20,000 bases of DNA from an uncultured virus (IMG/VR IMGVR_UViG_3300002092_000039) (lineage: Duplodnaviria; Heunggongvirae; Uroviricota; Caudoviricetes), in the IMG/VR virus record IMGVR_UViG_3300002092_000039. One strand, given 5' to 3'. The notes beneath the pieces were generated by a model that saw only the letters and a list, made by a program, of their open reading frames with translations, searched no databases and had not been told where the DNA came from. The position numbers and the translations under genes are program-made. Positions 2,047-13,242 of this stretch are shown here, piece after piece. Positions within the stretch are counted from its first letter, which is position 1, and every line of letters starts with the position of its first letter.

Positions 2047-2478
2047 AACGCAAGAACTTTTGACCTAACCCCTTTTCACCGTGGAACTATAGGGTTTGAA
2101 AATCTAATTAATGTATTAACCCATCATCATGCAACTGCATCGAATACTGGGTATCCTCCATACAATATCATACGTGTTGACGAAGACGCTTATCAAATCG
2201 AATTAGCAGTTGCTGGATTCAGTATGATGGAGCTTTCAATTACACAGGAACGCAATGATTTGATCATTGAAGGTACTCCAAACGAACATGAGGATGATAT
2301 TCCTCTATTTCTACACAAGGGAATTGCCAATCGTAATTTCATTCGCACATTCAAGATTGCCGAACATGTGGAAGTCAAGGACGCAAGTCTTGAGCTTGGC
2401 ATTCTAAAGATTACTTTGGAACGTAATGTTCCTGAGGAACTACAGCCTAAGAAAATTGCTATTAACTATAAAGCCTAA
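2044..2478 (+). CDS. ibpA: Small heat-shock protein (Hsp20/IbpA family)
   Basis: Motifs IGFE, YPPYNI, IELAVAGF, FLHKGIANRNF.RTF and LER.VPEELQPKKIAI. Start moved from 1999 to ATG 2044, which follows AAGGAG. Confidence 0.95.
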   Translation: MNARTFDLTPFHRGTIGFENLINVLTHHHATASNTGYPPYNIIRVDEDAYQIELAVAGFSMMELSITQERNDLIIEGTPNEHEDDIPLFLHKGIANRNFIRTFKIAEHVEVKDASLELGILKITLERNVPEELQPKKIAINYKA

Positions 2479-2488
2479 TATAACCACT

Positions 2489-2523
2489 ATCATGGCGGGT
2501 ATACTGCCCGCCATGATTAAATA
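2489..2523 (+). other. 11-bp perfect inverted repeat followed by TAAATA
   Basis: ATCATGGCGGG (2489-2499) and CCCGCCATGAT (2507-2517) with no U-tract. TAAATA at 2518-2523. Confidence 0.65.
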
Positions 2524-2529
2524 ATAGTG

Positions 2530-2850
2530 ATGGGAAAAATGACAACAGAAACCGAAACAACTACACGCATTGCAATTAAACATGATCTGGTTGCGCCGCC
2601 TCAATACAAAGTTATATTTGTCAATGACAGTGTAACTACTGTGGATTTTGTTATGGAAATCTTAGTTACCATATTTGCATATGATGCAGATGGAGCAAAG
2701 GATCTTACATTGAAGATTCACGAAGAGGGGCAAGCAGTTGTTGCTATTATGCCATATGAATTGGCTGAACAAAAAGCGTTGGAAACAACTGCTATTGCTC
2801 GTAGTAACGGTTTTCCACTCAATGTAAAAATTGAGCCAGTGGTCGTTTAA
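2530..2850 (+). CDS. clpS: Clp protease adaptor ClpS
   Basis: PPQYKVIFVNDSVTTVDFVMEIL...IHEEGQAVV...YELAEQK...GFPLNVKIE. The start could be 2527 (GTG), 2530 or 2539. Confidence 0.93.
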   Translation: MGKMTTETETTTRIAIKHDLVAPPQYKVIFVNDSVTTVDFVMEILVTIFAYDADGAKDLTLKIHEEGQAVVAIMPYELAEQKALETTAIARSNGFPLNVKIEPVVV

Positions 2851-3629
2851 GTTAAAATCATTTTGGGATAATAGAATAAGTTCTGGGGGCTGTCATCTTT
2901 ACGACCTCTTGGGTGACAAACGTATCTTACCCCATCAATTATTTCATCATACTCTTGATGTACATGCCCAAAGCACCAATTTTTAATTTTGCTATTGATA
3001 TCAAAGTCTAAAATTTTAGGTAAAAAGCTACTACCACATCTTGAAAAATGTGCGGGATGTTGTGGTTGTTTAACATCATTAAATTTATTGAATGGTGCAG
3101 TATGTGTTAGTACAATAATTTCTGCCACACCTGGATCAGTAGTTAGTTTAGCAACTATCTCACACATATAATGAGCATCTTCTCTGGCAGTATGAAAAAT
3201 TTCATACAATAATGGATCACTATAATGTCCATTATTTAAAAAATAAAAGTACGCTTCTTCCCTGGATATTTCAGGTTCCATAAAATCAAAAGTCCACCAG
3301 CCATTTGCTCCAACAAATGCAGTGCCATCAATGACAATTGCGTTGCGATTTAGGAATGTGATATTTTGATATTTGCTTAATTCATTTTTTAATTGTTGAT
3401 TATGTTCCTGAAATCCACATTGGTTATTATGCTCGTGGTTGCCATCAACAAAAATTACATACTTGTAATGTTTACTAATATCCACAACCGTTCGATAAGT
3501 GTCCTCAACATCAAAGTTAATGTCACCTAATACTACTGCTATCAAACTGGTACCAATACCTTCCCATTTTATTTTTGCATCATCGGGCCAGAAATTGTTA
3601 TGCAGATCCGAGACAAGATCAAACTTCAC
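2847..3629 (-). CDS. Calcineurin-like metallophosphoesterase
   Basis: Motifs SDLH, LGDI, DGNHEH, THTAP and FGHVH. GTG start with an AGGAG SD inside the 3' end of the endonuclease gene. Confidence 0.92.
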   Translation of the reverse strand: MKFDLVSDLHNNFWPDDAKIKWEGIGTSLIAVVLGDINFDVEDTYRTVVDISKHYKYVIFVDGNHEHNNQCGFQEHNQQLKNELSKYQNITFLNRNAIVIDGTAFVGANGWWTFDFMEPEISREEAYFYFLNNGHYSDPLLYEIFHTAREDAHYMCEIVAKLTTDPGVAEIIVLTHTAPFNKFNDVKQPQHPAHFSRCGSSFLPKILDFDINSKIKNWCFGHVHQEYDEIIDGVRYVCHPRGRKDDSPQNLFYYPKMILT

Positions 3630-4191
3630 GTTGTAATCTCCTATTCAGTTGAGCAAGTATTCTTGCTTCTGACCAAGGTTTACCTTTCATCGAAGATCTG
3701 GCAGATCCTTTATCGACCCTTGTTTTATAAGTTTTTCCTAAATTAACAGGAATACCTTTTTTTGCTTTTGAGATATTGCTATTAACATCTACATCTCTAA
3801 CTCTTGCTGCCTGACTTAAACTCATTTTTAATTTAGTTTTCTCTGAATGAGTTTTACCTTTCCAAGGACCTTCTCTTCCAATACTGGATTTGCTTATTTT
3901 AACTTTGGCTTCATTGGTGTGCCTATATCCAGATATTCCCTCGCCTCCGTTAGTTATGTTACGCAAAATTCCTGATCCTAAATCTTTTCGTCCAAATAAT
4001 TTTATGTATGCTATTTCTAATCTGAAAGCATCGTACTCTAATAGATTTTGTTGTAAAAAAATTATTCTGAGAGGATCTTTAGGAACTTTTACATTGTGCT
4101 TTTCAAATGCTCTGTTCTTACTACCTTTACCAATATAATATGGGGTGAGATCTTTTTCACGCAGGTAGGCGTAGATGTAGTAAATATTCAT
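3619..4191 (-). CDS. Free-standing GIY-YIG-superfamily homing endonuclease with NUMOD3 motifs
   Basis: YIYAY...PYYIGKG..NR, helix Glu in FRLEIAYIK, LRNITNGGEG, then NUMOD3-like GYRHTNEAKVKIS and GKTHSEKTKLKMS. AAGGAG SD. Confidence 0.88.
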   Translation of the reverse strand: MNIYYIYAYLREKDLTPYYIGKGSKNRAFEKHNVKVPKDPLRIIFLQQNLLEYDAFRLEIAYIKLFGRKDLGSGILRNITNGGEGISGYRHTNEAKVKISKSSIGREGPWKGKTHSEKTKLKMSLSQAARVRDVDVNSNISKAKKGIPVNLGKTYKTRVDKGSARSSMKGKPWSEARILAQLNRRLQREV

Positions 4192-4256
4192 GCTGTTGCT
4201 CCTTTAAAGCGATAGAGTAGTTGGGACTGCAATCCGCGAACTACGCTTTTATTTAT
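4192..4256 (-). promoter_or_regulatory. Structured leader of the endonuclease (TAAATA, hairpin, SD)
   Basis: Minus strand reads ATAAATA AAAGC GTAGTT CGC GGATTGCAGTCC C AACTAC TCTATCGCTTTAAAGGAGCAACAGC ATG. Confidence 0.7.
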
Positions 4257-4276
4257 TAAATCAAATTTCATTTCTG

Positions 4277-4305
4277 TTGACACGTTCCAAATAATACTAT
4301 ATAGT
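4277..4305 (+). promoter_or_regulatory. Sigma70-type promoter, probably giving a leaderless mRNA
   Basis: TTGACA (4277-4282), 17 nt, TATAGT (4300-4305). ATG 4312 follows after 6 nt with no SD. Confidence 0.75.
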
Positions 4306-4311
4306 TATATC

Positions 4312-4674
4312 ATGCAGATTATATTTGACGAAAAAATGGTACCAGAATTGCGTTCCAGATATGTTGTTCTGGAACTGGACACAATCATGCAGCCAGGGAT
4401 GGAGAAGCCTCTAACTCTGTATGCCCTCATTGAAACTATGAATTTGGAAATATTAACCAAGTTACCGGAAATTGTTCAGCAGCACGAAGATATGATTCGT
4501 GCATATAAGTCAAATGACTGGGATACTGCTGAAAGAGAAGCAAAAGCATTGCGTGGTTCTTGGCGTGGTGAGATTGATGAATTCTATGACATACTAATTG
4601 AATCTGTCAAGGAAATGCGTACATCAAATACTATCTGGACCGGTGTTAAGTTCGTTACTCCAGCCGAGGAATAA
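4312..4674 (+). CDS. Hypothetical protein resembling the C-terminal extension of class III adenylate cyclases
   Basis: 120 aa with ELDTI..PG...PLTLYAL, AYKSNDWDTAE, FYD and WTGV. No cyclase catalytic core. Confidence 0.65.
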   Translation: MQIIFDEKMVPELRSRYVVLELDTIMQPGMEKPLTLYALIETMNLEILTKLPEIVQQHEDMIRAYKSNDWDTAEREAKALRGSWRGEIDEFYDILIESVKEMRTSNTIWTGVKFVTPAEE

Positions 4675-4676
4675 TA

Positions 4677-5447
4677 ATGAGAACATACGCACACGAATGG
4701 AAGATTTTTGAATACATACGCAAGAAGTATGAGCTCAATAAGCCATATGCTCTTGAATGGGGCGGTTGGAAGAAGTGGAATGCACAGGCCAAAGCTGAAA
4801 AGCCCATAGTTTATTTCATTTGTGAGACCATTCCTGATTGGATTGATGACATCACACATTATATTCCAACGCCTATCTCTGATATTCGTTACTATTGTCG
4901 TAATCGTTTCAATCGTAAGACTCATGTACTGCCCACTGGTTTTAAGCCCGGTGATTATCATGATTTGGATGAGCGTATCCTATATGGTGTAATGAATGGT
5001 CTAGTTGACTATGTGGAAGTTGAGCTTGCCTATAAGAGTCGTTGGTGTAATACTGAGGAAAGCAAAACTGCCAAGTGGCGTAATGGGCGTTGTCCGGAAC
5101 TTGGACTTGCTCACCTTGCTTGGGAAATGACTCTTGATGATGAGGAGCTGAATGTAAATGAGCGTAGTGATACACAAGCGCAAACTGCCCGGGAAGTAAA
5201 GGCAATTTATGATTGGTGGAAGGCTCGTCCCAATCGTCCTGATCCGTATGATGTCAGTGGTTGGACTGCTATTTGCGAAGAGGGTAGAGATGCCGGTCTT
5301 GATTTCTTAGAAAATGGCGACGATGATTATGAGTCACGTAAAAGTGAAGCTCATAAGGTTCTACATCAGATGGAACGAGACTATGAAGCTGAGGATGAGG
5401 AAATGCTTATCCGTGTAATCAAGCGCCGCAAGTCACTGTGGTCTTGA
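4677..5447 (+). CDS. Hypothetical phage protein
   Basis: 256-aa Trp-rich ORF with a GAGGA SD, 2 nt after the previous stop. No family recognised. Confidence 0.8.
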   Translation: MRTYAHEWKIFEYIRKKYELNKPYALEWGGWKKWNAQAKAEKPIVYFICETIPDWIDDITHYIPTPISDIRYYCRNRFNRKTHVLPTGFKPGDYHDLDERILYGVMNGLVDYVEVELAYKSRWCNTEESKTAKWRNGRCPELGLAHLAWEMTLDDEELNVNERSDTQAQTAREVKAIYDWWKARPNRPDPYDVSGWTAICEEGRDAGLDFLENGDDDYESRKSEAHKVLHQMERDYEAEDEEMLIRVIKRRKSLWS

Positions 5448-8707: not shown

Positions 8708-8802
8708 TGTTTATTGTAAACTTTTTTAAAAATCTTTATTACAAGTGGCAAAGACGTAGGTTAATTGCAAAACTTCGTAAACAAGATCCTTTCATCTACT
8801 AA
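8707..8802 (+). CDS. 31-aa basic peptide MFIVNFFKNLYYKWQRRRLIAKLRKQDPFIY (not in ORF track)
   Basis: Fills the gap exactly, with TAATG overlaps at both ends (8705-8709 and 8800-8804). Confidence 0.75.
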   Translation: MFIVNFFKNLYYKWQRRRLIAKLRKQDPFIY

Positions 8803-10256
8803 TGATACTTGGCATTAATGCACTCAATCATGATGCTGCCATATGTCTCGTTAATAATAGCGAGATAAGGTTTGCTGGTCATGCTGAACGATACAGTCGT
8901 CGTAAGAATGACAGTGAATTACATCATAGACTGTTGTCTGACTGTTGTAATTATGGCACTCCAACTGAGATAGTTTGGTTTGAAAAACCACTTAGTAAAG
9001 CAATGCGTCGTTGGTACGCCGGCGAAACTCCCGTCTTTCAGAATGTAACCAAACATTTGAAAGAACACGGCCTTGGTAATTTACCTGTCACATATGTTCC
9101 TCATCATGCTGCTCACGCCGCAATGGGATTTTATACCAGTAAGTTTCCCAATGCTGCTGTCATTGTAGTAGATGCAATAGGGGAATGGGATACGACTAGT
9201 ATTTGGTCTGCTGACGGCACAGGGTTAAAATGTATCTTTAAGAACACTTACCCCAATAGCATGGGATTATTTTACAGTGCTGCTACCCAAGCAATTGGGC
9301 TTAAACCCAATGAGGAAGAATATATCCTTATGGGAATGGCTGCGTTTGGAAAACCAACATATACACAGTTGTTAAAGGATAGACTTTTTAAAGTATGGGA
9401 TGGGCCCAGATCAAAACTGAGACACAATCTTCACCGTGGTATGAAGCCCTGGATAACTGTGCAGCCCAATGACTATGCCAACTTTGCAGCAAGTGTACAA
9501 GCAATATTTGAAGAGTATATGTTTAGCTTGTGTGCTTATGCTCAAGTACGTATTCCCAGCAAGAACCTAATAATTGCTGGCGGCGGCGCATTAAATTGCG
9601 CCACAAATGGAAGAATTGATCAATTAAAAGTATTTGACCGTATATGGGTTCCACCTAATCCTGGAGATGCAGGGTTAAGTTTGGGTGCTATTGCGTATCA
9701 TACAAAGCAACCAATTGATTTTGATCATGCTTATCTTGGATATGATATTAAAAAGCATGTGGACATAGAGTCCATCATCAATAAACTTTCAAATGGTGAA
9801 GTTATTGGTGTAGCCAATGGGCGAGCAGAGTTTGGCCCACGAGCATTGGGCAACCGTAGTATATTGGCAGATCCTCGTGGCCCCGATGTCAAAGACCGTG
9901 TCAATGCTGTTAAGAAGCGTGAACCATTTAGGCCATTTGCTCCTGTCATACTAGCAGAATATGCAGATGAATATTTTAAATTGAATCATAACAACTATGA
10001 TTATATGCAATTTGCTGTTAAATGCAGACGCCCAGACCTATTCCCTGCTATTATACATGTTGATGGAACCAGCCGAGTTCAAACTGTGAATAAGGATAGT
10101 CCCAGTATTATTCGCCCAATATTGGAAGCATGGTATGCAAAGACTGGGTGCCCAATGTTACTGAATACCAGTCTGAATGTCAAAGGTGAACCATTGGTTA
10201 ACAACGCATTTGATGCTAGAATGTTTGGTAATATTAATAAGATACCAGTATTCTAG
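8802..10256 (+). CDS. Carbamoyltransferase (NodU/CmcH/TobZ family)
   Basis: HDAA, ERYSRRKND, HHAAHAA, DAIGE, GGGALNC, PGDAG, EFGPRALGNRSILADP, KKREPFRPFAP, HVDGTSRVQTV, LNTSLN.KGEP. Confidence 0.96.
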   Translation: MILGINALNHDAAICLVNNSEIRFAGHAERYSRRKNDSELHHRLLSDCCNYGTPTEIVWFEKPLSKAMRRWYAGETPVFQNVTKHLKEHGLGNLPVTYVPHHAAHAAMGFYTSKFPNAAVIVVDAIGEWDTTSIWSADGTGLKCIFKNTYPNSMGLFYSAATQAIGLKPNEEEYILMGMAAFGKPTYTQLLKDRLFKVWDGPRSKLRHNLHRGMKPWITVQPNDYANFAASVQAIFEEYMFSLCAYAQVRIPSKNLIIAGGGALNCATNGRIDQLKVFDRIWVPPNPGDAGLSLGAIAYHTKQPIDFDHAYLGYDIKKHVDIESIINKLSNGEVIGVANGRAEFGPRALGNRSILADPRGPDVKDRVNAVKKREPFRPFAPVILAEYADEYFKLNHNNYDYMQFAVKCRRPDLFPAIIHVDGTSRVQTVNKDSPSIIRPILEAWYAKTGCPMLLNTSLNVKGEPLVNNAFDARMFGNINKIPVF

Positions 10257-10284
10257 TTGACATTGTGTTACTTGGGTGTATACT
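10257..10284 (+). promoter_or_regulatory. Sigma70-type promoter, probably leaderless uvsE mRNA
   Basis: TTGACA (10257-10262), 16 nt, TATACT (10279-10284). ATG 10291 follows after 6 nt. Confidence 0.65.
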
Positions 10285-10290
10285 TGTAAT

Positions 10291-11328
10291 ATGACACAAC
10301 GTATCGGCTTTTGCTGCAAATGGATTGATGGTCCCAGTCAAATCAATGGGGTCAATCAAAAAGACACTGCCAAGGAGTTCAACACTGGCACAACCACTAT
10401 TACTTGGTTGAACAGGCAAACTCGTAGTGCCGCCGAAGATAGACTTTGGCTGCTGATGAAACAGAATCTTGAAGCAACTCGAAAACTTGTTGAACGTGTA
10501 GGAGATTTACCCAATGCATTACGAATGGTACGAATTAGTAGCGATCTTTTGCCTGCTTATACTGAGTCTAATTGGAGTTACTTTTGGCGTCAAGCAGATG
10601 TTAGATCATTTGCTGAGTTGGGGTTCCAGCGTATTGGTAAAATTGCGAGAGATCGCGACGTTCGTTTGTCTTTCCATCCTGGCCAGTTTTGTGTGTTGGC
10701 AAGTAATAGCGATGATGTCGTAAATAGAAGTATAGAGGAGTTTGAATATCATGTTGACATGGCACGTTGGATGGGCTACGGACGAGAATGGCATGACCAC
10801 GGGTTCAAGGTCAACGTACACATTGCTGGACGTCGGGGTCCTGCCGGAATTGTCGCTGCTTTGGGTCGTCTTAGCCCTGAGGCTAGGAATCTTATAACTA
10901 TTGAGAACGAAGAAAATGCGTGGGGATTAGATGACTGTCTTAGTATTGGACGTGATGTTGCTATTGTTCTGGACGTTCATCACCATTGGGTCAATACGGG
11001 CGAGTACATTGTGGCCACTGACGACAGAGTTAAACAGGTTGAATCTTCTTGGCGCGGTGTTAGGCCTACTCTTCATTATAGTTGCAGCCGTGAGGACATA
11101 CTGGGACATCATGACCCTGTTGTAATGCCCGATATGTTTGCCCTGCTTGAATCTGGTCATAAGAAACAGAAGCTTAGGGCACACAGTAACTTCATGTGGA
11201 ATCGTGCTGTTAACATGTATGTCAGTGAGTTCTGGGACAGGTTTGACATACAGGTTGAGAGCAAGGCCAAGAATCTTGCCAGTCATGCACTATATGAGGA
11301 ACTATGCAGGAACAACTTGAACAGCTGA
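10291..11328 (+). CDS. uvsE: UV-damage repair endonuclease (UvsE/UVDE)
   Basis: RIGFCCK, RISSDLLP, RLSFHPGQFCVL, NVHIAG, ITIENEE, LDVHHHW, RAHS, ESKAKNLA. Start moved from GTG 10276 to ATG 10291. Confidence 0.95.
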   Translation: MTQRIGFCCKWIDGPSQINGVNQKDTAKEFNTGTTTITWLNRQTRSAAEDRLWLLMKQNLEATRKLVERVGDLPNALRMVRISSDLLPAYTESNWSYFWRQADVRSFAELGFQRIGKIARDRDVRLSFHPGQFCVLASNSDDVVNRSIEEFEYHVDMARWMGYGREWHDHGFKVNVHIAGRRGPAGIVAALGRLSPEARNLITIENEENAWGLDDCLSIGRDVAIVLDVHHHWVNTGEYIVATDDRVKQVESSWRGVRPTLHYSCSREDILGHHDPVVMPDMFALLESGHKKQKLRAHSNFMWNRAVNMYVSEFWDRFDIQVESKAKNLASHALYEELCRNNLNS

Positions 11329-11459
11329 TTAAAGAAACCATGCAGTGGCGAGAGTACCATCGTGTCAATAGAAATCAAATTGATGCTGCTGCTTGTGCCA
11401 TTAGACTAACTGCACTTCAAGAAGTATTGTCAATTATTAAAAAGGCACTAAACACATAA
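11304..11459 (+). CDS. 51-aa helical hypothetical protein (not in ORF track)
   Basis: MQEQLEQLIKETMQWREYHRVNRNQIDAAACAIRLTALQEVLSIIKKALNT. GAGGA upstream; its TAA overlaps the ATG of the radical SAM gene. Confidence 0.65.
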   Translation: MQEQLEQLIKETMQWREYHRVNRNQIDAAACAIRLTALQEVLSIIKKALNT

Positions 11460-12646
11460 TGGCAATTGGTAAAAATATATGTGTGGTTCCATTTACTCAA
11501 ATAACTTATGGTGCTTTTGATAATGCAAGTCCTTGTCCATATTTGGGTGGGGACATATGGCACTTTGATTCCAATACTACATTAACTGATATTTGGCTTA
11601 GTCCAGAATATGAAGCATTACGCCAATCATTTAAACAAAATGATAAGAATGAAATATGCAGCAGATGTTGGCGTGAAGAGGAACATGGTAAGCAGAGTGC
11701 TAGAAAACTTGAATTAATTAGTTCCAAGTACAAGAAGGATATTGTTAACGTAGTTGACGGCGACTACAAATTAGGACCAAAACAAATTAATCTAAGAGTC
11801 AGCAATATTTGCAATCTTAGATGCAGACCCTGCAACGGGCAAAGTTCCTCTACATATTCCATTGAGGGAAAGTATTATGAAGAAAAAAATAATCTCCCTC
11901 AGACAACGTATACACGCCTTTCCGATCCCACTCAATTTAGTGACAAACAGATAGATGGGATTTATGAACTTTCCAATAATCTTCGTTACATTGGGTTCTA
12001 TGGTGGAGAACCATTAGTGGATAAGCCAACGCTGCGGTTATTGGAAAAGCTAGTGGAAAGTGGCAGAAGCAAACAGATTACTCTATACTATAATACCAAT
12101 GGCATATCTGTACCCACAGCAAAACATTTGGATCTCTGGCGTCAATTTGAAAGCATTGAATTTAAATTTAGTATTGATGCCATTGACAAACAGTTTACCT
12201 ATATTAGACACCCGGGTAAATGGCAGGAGTTGCTGGAAAACGTAAATTTTATTAAGAATGATCTTTCTAATTTAATTGGTATTCCAGTATCATGCGGCAT
12301 TATATGTACTGTGCAGATACTAAATGTATTTTATCTGCCAGAAATAATATCTGCATTTGATAAATTTGAGATGTCGTGTTTTTTAAATTTAGTTACTAAG
12401 CCTGCTTATTATGACATACGACATATACCAACTGATGTTAAGCAACAGATCATTGACAAGCTATCACTTATGCAGCAAAAATCTGATATTGCATCCATTA
12501 TATCAATCTTGAAATCAGAGTATAATCCAAAGCATTGGGAAGAATTTAAATTTTGGTCACGGCAGAAGGATGCTTATCGTAAGGAAAATTTCGCCGCAAC
12601 TTTTCCAGAATTCTTTAAGATCATAACTGAACTGGGACATTGGTAA
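11459..12646 (+). CDS. Radical SAM protein with an N-terminal SPASM/twitch-like Cys domain
   Basis: CNLRCRPC (CxxxCxxC), GGEPL, YNTNG, SIDA; N-terminal CVVPF...SPC...CSRC. Confidence 0.92.
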   Translation: MAIGKNICVVPFTQITYGAFDNASPCPYLGGDIWHFDSNTTLTDIWLSPEYEALRQSFKQNDKNEICSRCWREEEHGKQSARKLELISSKYKKDIVNVVDGDYKLGPKQINLRVSNICNLRCRPCNGQSSSTYSIEGKYYEEKNNLPQTTYTRLSDPTQFSDKQIDGIYELSNNLRYIGFYGGEPLVDKPTLRLLEKLVESGRSKQITLYYNTNGISVPTAKHLDLWRQFESIEFKFSIDAIDKQFTYIRHPGKWQELLENVNFIKNDLSNLIGIPVSCGIICTVQILNVFYLPEIISAFDKFEMSCFLNLVTKPAYYDIRHIPTDVKQQIIDKLSLMQQKSDIASIISILKSEYNPKHWEEFKFWSRQKDAYRKENFAATFPEFFKIITELGHW

Positions 12647-13242
12647 TGGATGACATTCTAATAATTGATGATGCAGTATCAAAGGAAACTATGGATCATT
12701 TAGAAAAGTTGGTTACAAGTGTAATTTTCCCATGGCATTATCATCATACCAGTGCTTATAGTTTAGACGACATAAAGAAGTTGGGTTTAACAGAAGAATT
12801 TGTCATTAACTCTGTCGACACTCCTTTTATGAGTCATATACTTTGGAATGATGGTCCCAATTCTAATTTTACAAATGATTTTTTACCAGCGGCGGAAGTA
12901 ATACCCAATATTGATGATTATACTGTTGTTAGATTTAAATTGAACCTAACATTCCCCTCACCAGGATGTAATGAAAATACACACAGCTACCCACACTGTG
13001 ATCTTTTCTACCTTAAAGAGGATTATCTAACTGCAATTTATTATATCAATGACAGCGTGGGCGATACATTCATTTTTAATGAAAAATGGGGTCATTTTGG
13101 TGCTTTAACAGTGAAACAACGTATAACACCCAAAAAGGGAAGGCTAGTTGTATTCAATGGCAAGCTGTTACATGCTGGCAATAATCCACTGGTGGGAAAT
13201 GCTGGTAGATTGGTTGCAAACATAAATTTAATTAAAAAATAG
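12646..13242 (+). CDS. 2OG-Fe(II) oxygenase
   Basis: HxD (PHCD), AIYYIND..GDT, PKKGRLVVFNG, LHAG and distal Arg (GRLVANIN). ATG 12646 overlaps the upstream TAA. Confidence 0.88.
   Translation: MDDILIIDDAVSKETMDHLEKLVTSVIFPWHYHHTSAYSLDDIKKLGLTEEFVINSVDTPFMSHILWNDGPNSNFTNDFLPAAEVIPNIDDYTVVRFKLNLTFPSPGCNENTHSYPHCDLFYLKEDYLTAIYYINDSVGDTFIFNEKWGHFGALTVKQRITPKKGRLVVFNGKLLHAGNNPLVGNAGRLVANINLIKK

Follow-up and report, generated by a model that had tools for sequence, protein, structure and literature searches.

Organization of the locus

The stretch of DNA analyzed here, hereafter the window, comprises 20,000 nucleotides (nt) of an uncultured virus of the Caudoviricetes (IMG/VR record IMGVR_UViG_3300002092_000039). 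This study focuses on a cassette encoding a predicted homing endonuclease at the 5' end of a phosphoesterase (PE) gene on the minus strand. The native beginning of the PE gene survives as a short stub upstream of the cassette, and the PE gene itself starts inside the end of the endonuclease gene. A first-pass annotation of the sequence had proposed that the cassette entered the PE gene and rebuilt its start. The locus consists of the following features, in which ORF denotes an open reading frame and SD a Shine-Dalgarno sequence; related loci carry numbers beginning with L.

4312..4674, plus strand: DIV, a divergent gene of 120 amino acids (aa), taken from the ORF call and used as the left flank marker
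4272..4311, no strand: native 40-nt intergenic region between DIV and PE, identical to that of L061
4260..4271, minus strand: stub, the native first 12 nt (4 codons) of PE, ATGAAATTTGAT, identical to the starts of L061, L001, and L062-L067
4188..4271, minus strand: 27-codon ORF headed by the stub, MKFDLINKSVVRGLQSQLLYRFKGATA; it terminates in a TGA that shares the ATGA at 4191-4188 with the endonuclease start codon, read directly from the sequence
4192..4259, minus strand: cassette leader of 68 nt, conserved in the family, with an A/T box, helix 1, a weaker helix 2, and an SD
3619..4191, minus strand: predicted free-standing GIY-YIG/NUMOD3 homing endonuclease of 190 aa, overlapping the PE start by 11 nt at its 3' end
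3638..3642, minus strand: AGGAG, putative SD for the new PE start, in the last codons of the endonuclease
3488..3629, minus strand: foreign PE 5' tract (PE nt 1-142), identified by allele comparison, with the GTG start at 3629-3627
2847..3487, minus strand: remaining PE, native and L061-like (595/641 identical to L061)
3629-2847, minus strand: whole PE ORF, a calcineurin-like metallophosphoesterase of 260 aa (Pfam Metallophos, E=3e-6; phrog_1649, E=4.3e-35)

The minus strand reads ATG AAA TTT GAT TTA (MKFDL) at 4271-4257 and GTG AAG TTT GAT CTT at 3629-3615, which again gives M-K-F-D-L when GTG is taken as the start. These two copies are identical at 11 of 15 nt, and all four differences preserve the peptide. 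The AGGAG at 3642-3638 lies 8 nt ahead of the GTG at 3629 and within the endonuclease ORF (4191-3619). The first-pass annotation had reported both MKFDL copies, their synonymous differences, and the GTG and AGGAG in the last codons of the endonuclease, and all are present as described. Because an in-frame TGA lies at 3647-3645, this GTG is the sole possible PE start upstream of the D-x-H metal-binding motif, which occupies PE residues 8-10 in the downstream, full-length ORF. The endonuclease is read in a different frame from PE; the two overlap by 11 nt, the first 11 nt of PE doubling as the last three codons and the stop of the endonuclease. DIV has no reliable family match in Pfam or PHROGs. 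Its homologs adjoin PE in L001 and in 19 of the 23 metagenome loci described below.

Empty and occupied alleles

Relatives of the locus were sought in several collections. No GenBank phage gave a megablast match to window 2400-4800, and tblastn with PE against GenBank phages returned only distant jumbo-phage phosphoesterases (<=28.5% identical) that are of no use as empty alleles. A scan of IMG/VR with PE yielded one syntenic relative, L001 (73% protein identity), which carries no endonuclease and whose PE begins ATGAAATTTGATCTTGTT..., 41 nt from DIV. The corresponding IMG/VR scan with DIV gave no confirmed relative, and a search for PE in large IMG/VR records with endonuclease relatives returned only the record of L001 and a weak match. 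A metagenome scan with a two-protein alignment produced 23 loci, which were sorted by tblastn with PE, DIV, and the endonuclease and by inspection of the starts.

Eighteen of the 23 loci (L061-L067, L069, L071, L072, and L074-L081, with L078 being the same contig as L001) are empty: PE starts 29-43 nt from the divergent DIV gene, and there is no endonuclease. This architecture spans the whole PE tree, from 42 to 90% protein identity. The upstream ATG of the window is 40 nt from DIV, the same position as the PE starts of the empty alleles, which read MKFDL(V/I)SDLH. The annotation had taken 4271 for the ancestral start and had predicted just such an alignment, with a start some 40 nt away from DIV; both expectations are borne out by these loci. 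A chance match in AT-rich sequence had been considered for the upstream MKFDL and is dismissed; the match is not accidental, given its positional agreement with 18 empty alleles.

L060 is the only occupied locus among the 23; it is 99.87% identical to the window over 770 nt and is not independent of it. Apart from the window and L060, no endonuclease relative was found to adjoin PE. The remaining loci are L073, with another insertion at the PE 5' site; L068, without DIV; L070, truncated at its 5' end; and L082, which is distant (30%) and also without DIV. In L068 (2900-3010), PE directly follows a 257-aa gene and begins with TTG (LRFDLV...).

Near-isogenic empty alleles were present in contigs from public runs of two other lake studies, the flanks of which are about 99% identical to the window. 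X11 record 1 (6767 nt) matches 2908-3487 with 2 differences and 4260-4700 with 7; X5 record 8 (1322 nt) matches 2900-3487 with 7 differences and 4260-4452 with 1. Both contigs carry 130 nt, corresponding to native PE nt 13-142, in place of the 772 nt at window 3488-4259, with the joints at 4260 and 3487. The X5 run holds both states of the locus: its record 10 (1041 nt) covers 3346-4273 with 53 differences and is a second occupied version, approximately 94% identical to the window.

Breakpoints and the foreign phosphoesterase tract

L061 is the closest relative of the window, with about 92% nucleotide identity over about 7 kb and 90% identity of the PE protein. Aligned with L061, the window shows a single 642-nt gap, followed directly by two 60-nt bins in which 41 and then 36 positions agree. 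Agreement in almost every other bin is 46-60 of 60, the low exceptions being 5951-5892 (41/60) and the run 2307-2088. On the DIV side, L061 is 100% identical to window 4328-4260 (69/69 nt) and stops being so right after ATGAAATTTGAT; 4260 is likewise where the match to the empty contigs ends. What remains of the native start is 12 nt, or four codons. The fifth codon, TTA, belongs to the cassette, because no more than 3 nt separate the junction from the start of the A/T box. The insertion had been placed after codon 5; since both the L061 identity and the empty contigs end at 4260, it lies after codon 4 (nt 12).

The other breakpoint lies within PE. PE nt 13-142 are 64% identical to L061 (83/130) and 82% identical to L001 (107/130), while PE nt 143-783 are 93% identical to L061 (595/641) and 71% identical to L001 (452/641). 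At sites that distinguish L061 from L001, PE nt 1-140 are L001-like at 32, L061-like at 9, and neither at 8; the corresponding counts for PE nt 141-783 are 24, 166, and 15. The allele thus switches at PE nt ~142 (Fisher's exact p=2.8e-16). The first 142 nt of PE (47 codons) are foreign, derive from a different PE allele lineage, and arrived with the cassette. The best protein matches of the first 47 PE residues are 43/47 (P0133, of the L001 type) and then 41/47 (P0128).

These results modify the earlier view of the new start. As had been suggested, a replacement start is part of the incoming DNA, and its SD lies within the last codons of the endonuclease. The additional claim of a recoded N-terminus holds only insofar as a foreign start was carried in: what came with it is not five recoded codons but an allelic tract of 142 nt, of the kind expected from ordinary co-conversion of a donor flank, and it differs from the native tract at many amino acids. 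The first 18 nt of the new start are 15/18 identical to the L001-clade start; as this equals the tract-wide divergence (82% identity), we do not regard the start as recoded. Starts other than ATG also occur in natural PE alleles, such as the TTG of L068 and the L-initial proteins P0141 and P0150.

The inserted endonuclease and its leader

Several motif and profile matches point to a homing endonuclease. NUMOD3, a DNA-binding module characteristic of homing endonucleases, was detected at residues 88-124 (Pfam, E=9.3e-12), and the protein matches phrog_314, "homing endonuclease" (PHROGs, E=8.4e-14). When 19 members of the family, drawn from IMG/VR loci, were aligned, residues Y5, Y7, Y19, G21, R27, E59, and N78 proved invariant; we take these to correspond to the catalytic residues in I-TevI numbering. 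A profile of the 19 members matches a solved GIY-YIG domain-containing protein (9u75, E=7.2e-8) and, weakly, UvrC N-terminal domains. The family is large, with 1648 proteins at E<=1e-10. Within the window, tblastn detected a single endonuclease ORF.

Two close relatives of the endonuclease, 97% (P0001) and 88% (P0002) identical, are also 190 aa long. The 88% relative ends ...LLSEI, and the codon options for Ser imply that its gene would end AGT GAA ATT TGA, which would create a GTG-AAA-TTT-GA overlap. Judging from this relative, the overlap with a PE-type start seems to be older than the acquisition seen in the window. Endonuclease paralogs, approximately 40% identical, also occur on the minus strand of L074 (5039-5548) and L076 (5167-5643), two members of a distant clade, where they are encoded opposite to PE and some 2 kb downstream of it; several sites around the PE locus therefore appear to be endonuclease-prone.

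The leader upstream of the endonuclease shares its layout (A/T box, hairpin, SD, ATG) with the leaders of L002, L003, L007, L012, L013, L019, and L063, which lie at other sites. In the window, the A/T box occupies approximately 4246-4259, helix 1 4244-4217, and the SD, AGGAG, 4203-4199. RNAalifold on 8 sequences predicted 18 pairs, of which 11 have both partners changed, and a covariance model found 21 matches in 70 sources, with window 4260-4188 scoring 80.6 bits. In an alignment of 12 distinct rows, which was fitted to the covariance model itself, 98.5% of the cells of helix 1 are paired and 9 of its 11 pairs are doubly changed, compared with 22-44% of cells paired in slid controls. Helix 2, whose arms flank the SD, is the weaker of the two (pairing in 83% of cells; 5 of 7 pairs doubly changed). 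The single-sequence fold of the leader is no better than that of shuffled sequences (z=-0.19), so the case for the hairpin is made by the covariation only. Rfam gave no match in 3400-4500 on either strand at E<=1.

The A/T box resembles the consensus octamer of T4 late promoters, and it is not called a promoter here. A late-promoter role was considered and dropped, since the octamer shows no enrichment in the window, with 2 copies against an expected 1.9.

Copies of the leader were recorded in L002, L003-L013, L019, L061, and L063, with additional copies away from known endonuclease starts in L007 (1346-1420), L010 (125-199), and L012 (3459-3536). The window also contains a relic of a second endonuclease cassette at 788-872 on the minus strand. 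There, a leader with an intact helix 1 (58.1 bits, E=1.2e-14) is joined straight to the last eight codons (YENSDKN and the stop) of an endonuclease that is intact in L063 (5869-6480). This looks like an internal deletion of the endonuclease body; the remnant at the same site in L061 is about 100 nt longer.

Probable insertion by intronless homing

The GIY-YIG/NUMOD3 cassette lies directly after native PE nt 12, in one 772-nt block with nt 1-142 of a donor PE, and this block has replaced resident nt 13-142; it very probably arrived by intronless homing with one-sided co-conversion. In such a process the endonuclease would cut an empty PE allele within the first ~140 nt; the break would be repaired from an occupied genome, and the cassette and the stretch from the insertion site to the cut would be copied together. 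The diverged donor tract might then make the occupied allele a poor substrate. The left flank is wholly resident up to PE nt 12, and the one-sided conversion tract of 142 nt is consistent with a cut site near the PE 5' end, of which it is no demonstration. PE keeps an intact ORF because a GTG start is part of the block, with an SD in the last codons of the endonuclease. Intronless homing is known from the seg genes of T4, for which free-standing endonucleases, co-conversion, and marker exclusion are described in PMC2988022, as are promoters of downstream genes embedded in endonuclease genes.

The arrangement also suggests how the genes may be expressed. Ribosomes that initiate in the native PE start region could translate the 27-codon ORF of the stub across the hairpin, terminate at the ATGA, and begin anew on the endonuclease. 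The endonuclease in turn stops 11 nt inside PE, behind a strong SD, and PE would be coupled to it in the same manner. The native initiation region, the endonuclease, and PE are thus probably a chain of translationally coupled cistrons, as read from the sequence.

Several points weigh against this interpretation. No donor was found, the best matches of the foreign tract being 82% identical (107/130). The left conversion tract has zero length (69/69 nt are those of L061), which is unusual for homing between homologous flanks. Occupied alleles are rare, at 1 of 23 loci, and that one (L060) depends on the window; the second occupied version, X5 record 10, reaches 14 nt onto the stub side and is too short to bridge the junction. 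The Pfam GIY-YIG model did not match the endonuclease at E<=0.01, phmmer found no match to it in PDB, and the assigned fold follows from the motifs and the profile match. Moreover, the phage is known from metagenome contigs alone.

The zero-length left tract bears on how the stub arose. It is possible, though somewhat doubtful, that homing began with a cut near PE codons 4-6, that the right end copied a donor carrying the endonuclease upstream of PE in another neighborhood, and that the left end was sealed at a microhomology by one-sided illegitimate repair. This would concern only the origin of the stub within the homing interpretation. Such repair, one-sided and at microhomologies, is described for T4 (PMC2988022). 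There is no donor sequence left of the junction, where 69/69 nt are identical to L061, and an independent insertion in L073 has likewise left 18 nt of the native start in place at the ancestral position. However, ATGAAATTTGAT is common to the starts of L001 and L061-L067, and a stub-bearing donor with a crossover within the stub gives the same product; the 88% and 94% variants further suggest that the architecture predates this acquisition. The donor may thus already have had the stub, the cassette, and the GTG, with the left crossover falling within the <=17 nt common to the clades around the start. The left identity to L061 fits both origins.

A rival possibility is that the cassette was built for the 5' end of its target ORF, carrying a portable SD, start, and first codons at its 3' end and keeping the stub as a translational on-ramp or as an operator beside the A/T box, not as an incidental scar. 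The stub ORF does end exactly in ATGA with the endonuclease start, and codon inference suggests that the overlap architecture is kept in the 88%-identical endonuclease. L048, a C-terminal fragment of a related endonuclease, stops at the same length and has an SD for the next gene in its last codons. A precedent exists in I-TevI, whose operator is a homing-site look-alike overlapping its own promoter (PMC2988022). We nevertheless consider such a design unlikely. Seven leader-bearing relatives (L002, L003, L007, L012, L013, L019, and L063) have no same-strand gene start at the 3' end, and the L063 endonuclease lies antisense between two genes; start donation as a trait of the family is dismissed on account of these seven. 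The first 18 nt of the new start also match at 15/18, against 82% for the tract, as a plain homologous allele would.

Two further explanations carry very little weight. Restoration of PE by splicing from an upstream MKFD(L) exon, through a group I intron or another self-splicing element, is scarcely credible. An upstream copy of the first codons is present, and members of this endonuclease family are often named "group I intron endonuclease" in the source annotations; yet the Rfam search, over 3400-4500 on both strands at E<=1, was negative, the only non-coding sequence is the 68-nt leader, the same leader occurs at intergenic sites elsewhere, and PE downstream possesses a full homologous 5' end with a start and SD of its own. 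The view of the first-pass annotation that no intron is needed agrees with these observations. It is also very improbable that the occupied state is ancestral and that the empty alleles arose by loss of the endonuclease. Such loss is known in the group, from the relic at window 872-788 where the L063 gene is intact. In opposition to this, the empty architecture occurs at 18 loci across the PE tree (42-90% protein identity), it is the endonuclease-linked tract that is foreign, and the near-isogenic empty alleles carry 130 other letters; a deletion would not restore a native-type tract.

L073 (1730-3010) provides a second, independent insertion at the same PE 5' position. It retains the native intergenic region, which is nearly identical to that of L075, and ATGCAGTTTGATTTATAT, the first 18 nt of PE (16/18 identical to L075), 38 nt from DIV. 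The stub is followed by a radical SAM gene of 371 aa on the opposite strand (Pfam, E=6.3e-10), which is flanked by a 16-nt direct repeat (1779-1794 and 2944-2959), and then by a new 41-nt upstream region and a complete PE. Taken together with the window, L073 indicates that a junction has formed in the first PE codons on at least two occasions, each with different cargo. A tentative extension, which we hold to be less than probable and for which L073 is the single extra case, is that PE codons 4-6 are a recurrent break point of this endonuclease family, that repair imports unrelated DNA as well as the endonuclease, and that the gene is re-started from the imported sequence.

Comparison with known systems

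The cassette has the properties of a free-standing homing endonuclease: catalytic residues (by alignment), a NUMOD module, presence or absence at a fixed site, and co-conversion with limits at 4260 and 3487. No self-splicing RNA of the kind that surrounds a group I intron-encoded endonuclease was detected by Rfam in 3400-4500 at E<=1. The T4-like seg genes (SegF/gene 56 and SegG/gene 32) are similar in that a GIY-YIG endonuclease outside an intron is present or absent at a fixed site, the adjacent gene is co-converted, and expression signals of the downstream gene lie inside the endonuclease gene (PMC2988022). However, seg genes lie between genes, whereas the cassette lies inside an ORF after codon 4 and leaves a start-codon stub, and here the downstream start codon overlaps the endonuclease stop. 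The host in this study is an uncultured freshwater phage, and the likeness to seg drawn here is one of arrangement.

Intronless insertion into a coding region with retention of host function is also described for mobE in Aeh1 nrdA and mobA in T4 gene 39/60, in PMC2988022. In those cases the host protein is made as two reassembling polypeptides, while the piece upstream of the cassette consists of four native codons, so that there are not two functional polypeptides, and a complete protein would be made from the new start. The leader, a short conserved element directly upstream of the endonuclease with an A/T box, a stable hairpin, an SD, and a weaker second helix around the SD, recalls the late promoter and RNA hairpin of T4 I-TevI, segB, Aeh1 mobE, and phage 25 seg43 (PMC2988022). 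It differs from them in that it is not called a promoter here, helix 1 does not cover the SD, and it belongs to no Rfam family.

By analogy, the closest conceptual relative of the PE cassette is the mORF hybrid of fungal mitochondria, reported for Allomyces macrogynus atp6 and for Glomus atp6, atp9, cox2, and nad3 (PMC3630166). In those hybrids a foreign C-terminus comes with the endonuclease ORF, and its native counterpart is left as an untranslated remnant; identity to a sister genome is 64-81% in the foreign part and 91-98% in the native part (PMC3630166). Both systems thus combine an endonuclease, a foreign and far more diverged copy of one end of the host gene, and the native end as a remnant. 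In the window the arrangement appears in mirror image, with a foreign 5' end of 142 nt and a remnant of 12 nt. In place of a 3' insertion in phase with the host ORF, there is a 5' insertion in another frame. Further differences are that the imported end is a 5' end with a start codon, in a phage and not a mitochondrion; that replacement, not displacement, of the resident 130 nt left a remnant of only 12 nt; and that the endonuclease forms an overlapping cistron of its own and would rely on translational restart, where the mORFs are fused in frame. A keyword search restricted to open-access text found no phage case of an endonuclease that leaves a start-codon stub, which is no proof of absence. 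The class of mechanism, intronless homing, is already known; the empty/occupied pair, the 5' mirror image of mORF hybrids, and the unlisted leader are worth recording.

Other features of the window

The native spacer between DIV and PE contains a perfect 10-nt palindrome, ACTATATAGT, at 4296-4305, the core of which is conserved in the ~72% clade. A promoter scan found a sigma-70-like promoter facing DIV at 4277-4305 (TTGACA, 17 nt, TATAGT), which is a consensus match of 11/12 positions. Its -10 element ends 6 nt before the DIV ATG, and the DIV mRNA may be leaderless. Elsewhere, two regions of the window, 1999-2850 and 8802-13242, are rich in accessory genes:

1999-2478: Hsp20
2527-2850: ClpS
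8802-10256: Nol-like carbamoyltransferase
10276-11328: PHROG "endonuclease"
11459-12646: radical SAM
12640-13242: endonuclease V / 2OG-Fe(II) oxygenase-like gene

Significance

The locus provides an unusually clean natural before-and-after pair: the alleles are near-isogenic, both breakpoints are placed to the base, and the imported tract is assigned to another lineage. It illustrates a third way for a homing endonuclease to inhabit a gene with neither intron nor intein while the protein stays in one piece: the element itself supplies a new 5' end with a start codon. A further prediction from the locus is that the endonuclease cuts PE within its first ~140 nt. The conserved leader, absent from Rfam, is common to the endonuclease family across freshwater phage contigs. 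If the first PE codons are indeed a recurrent break point, start-donating cassettes would be the phage counterpart of mitochondrial mORF hybrids, homing endonucleases would drive the capture of accessory genes inside coding regions without introns, and the stub and the leader hairpin would tie the expression of the endonuclease to the initiation site of the host gene itself.

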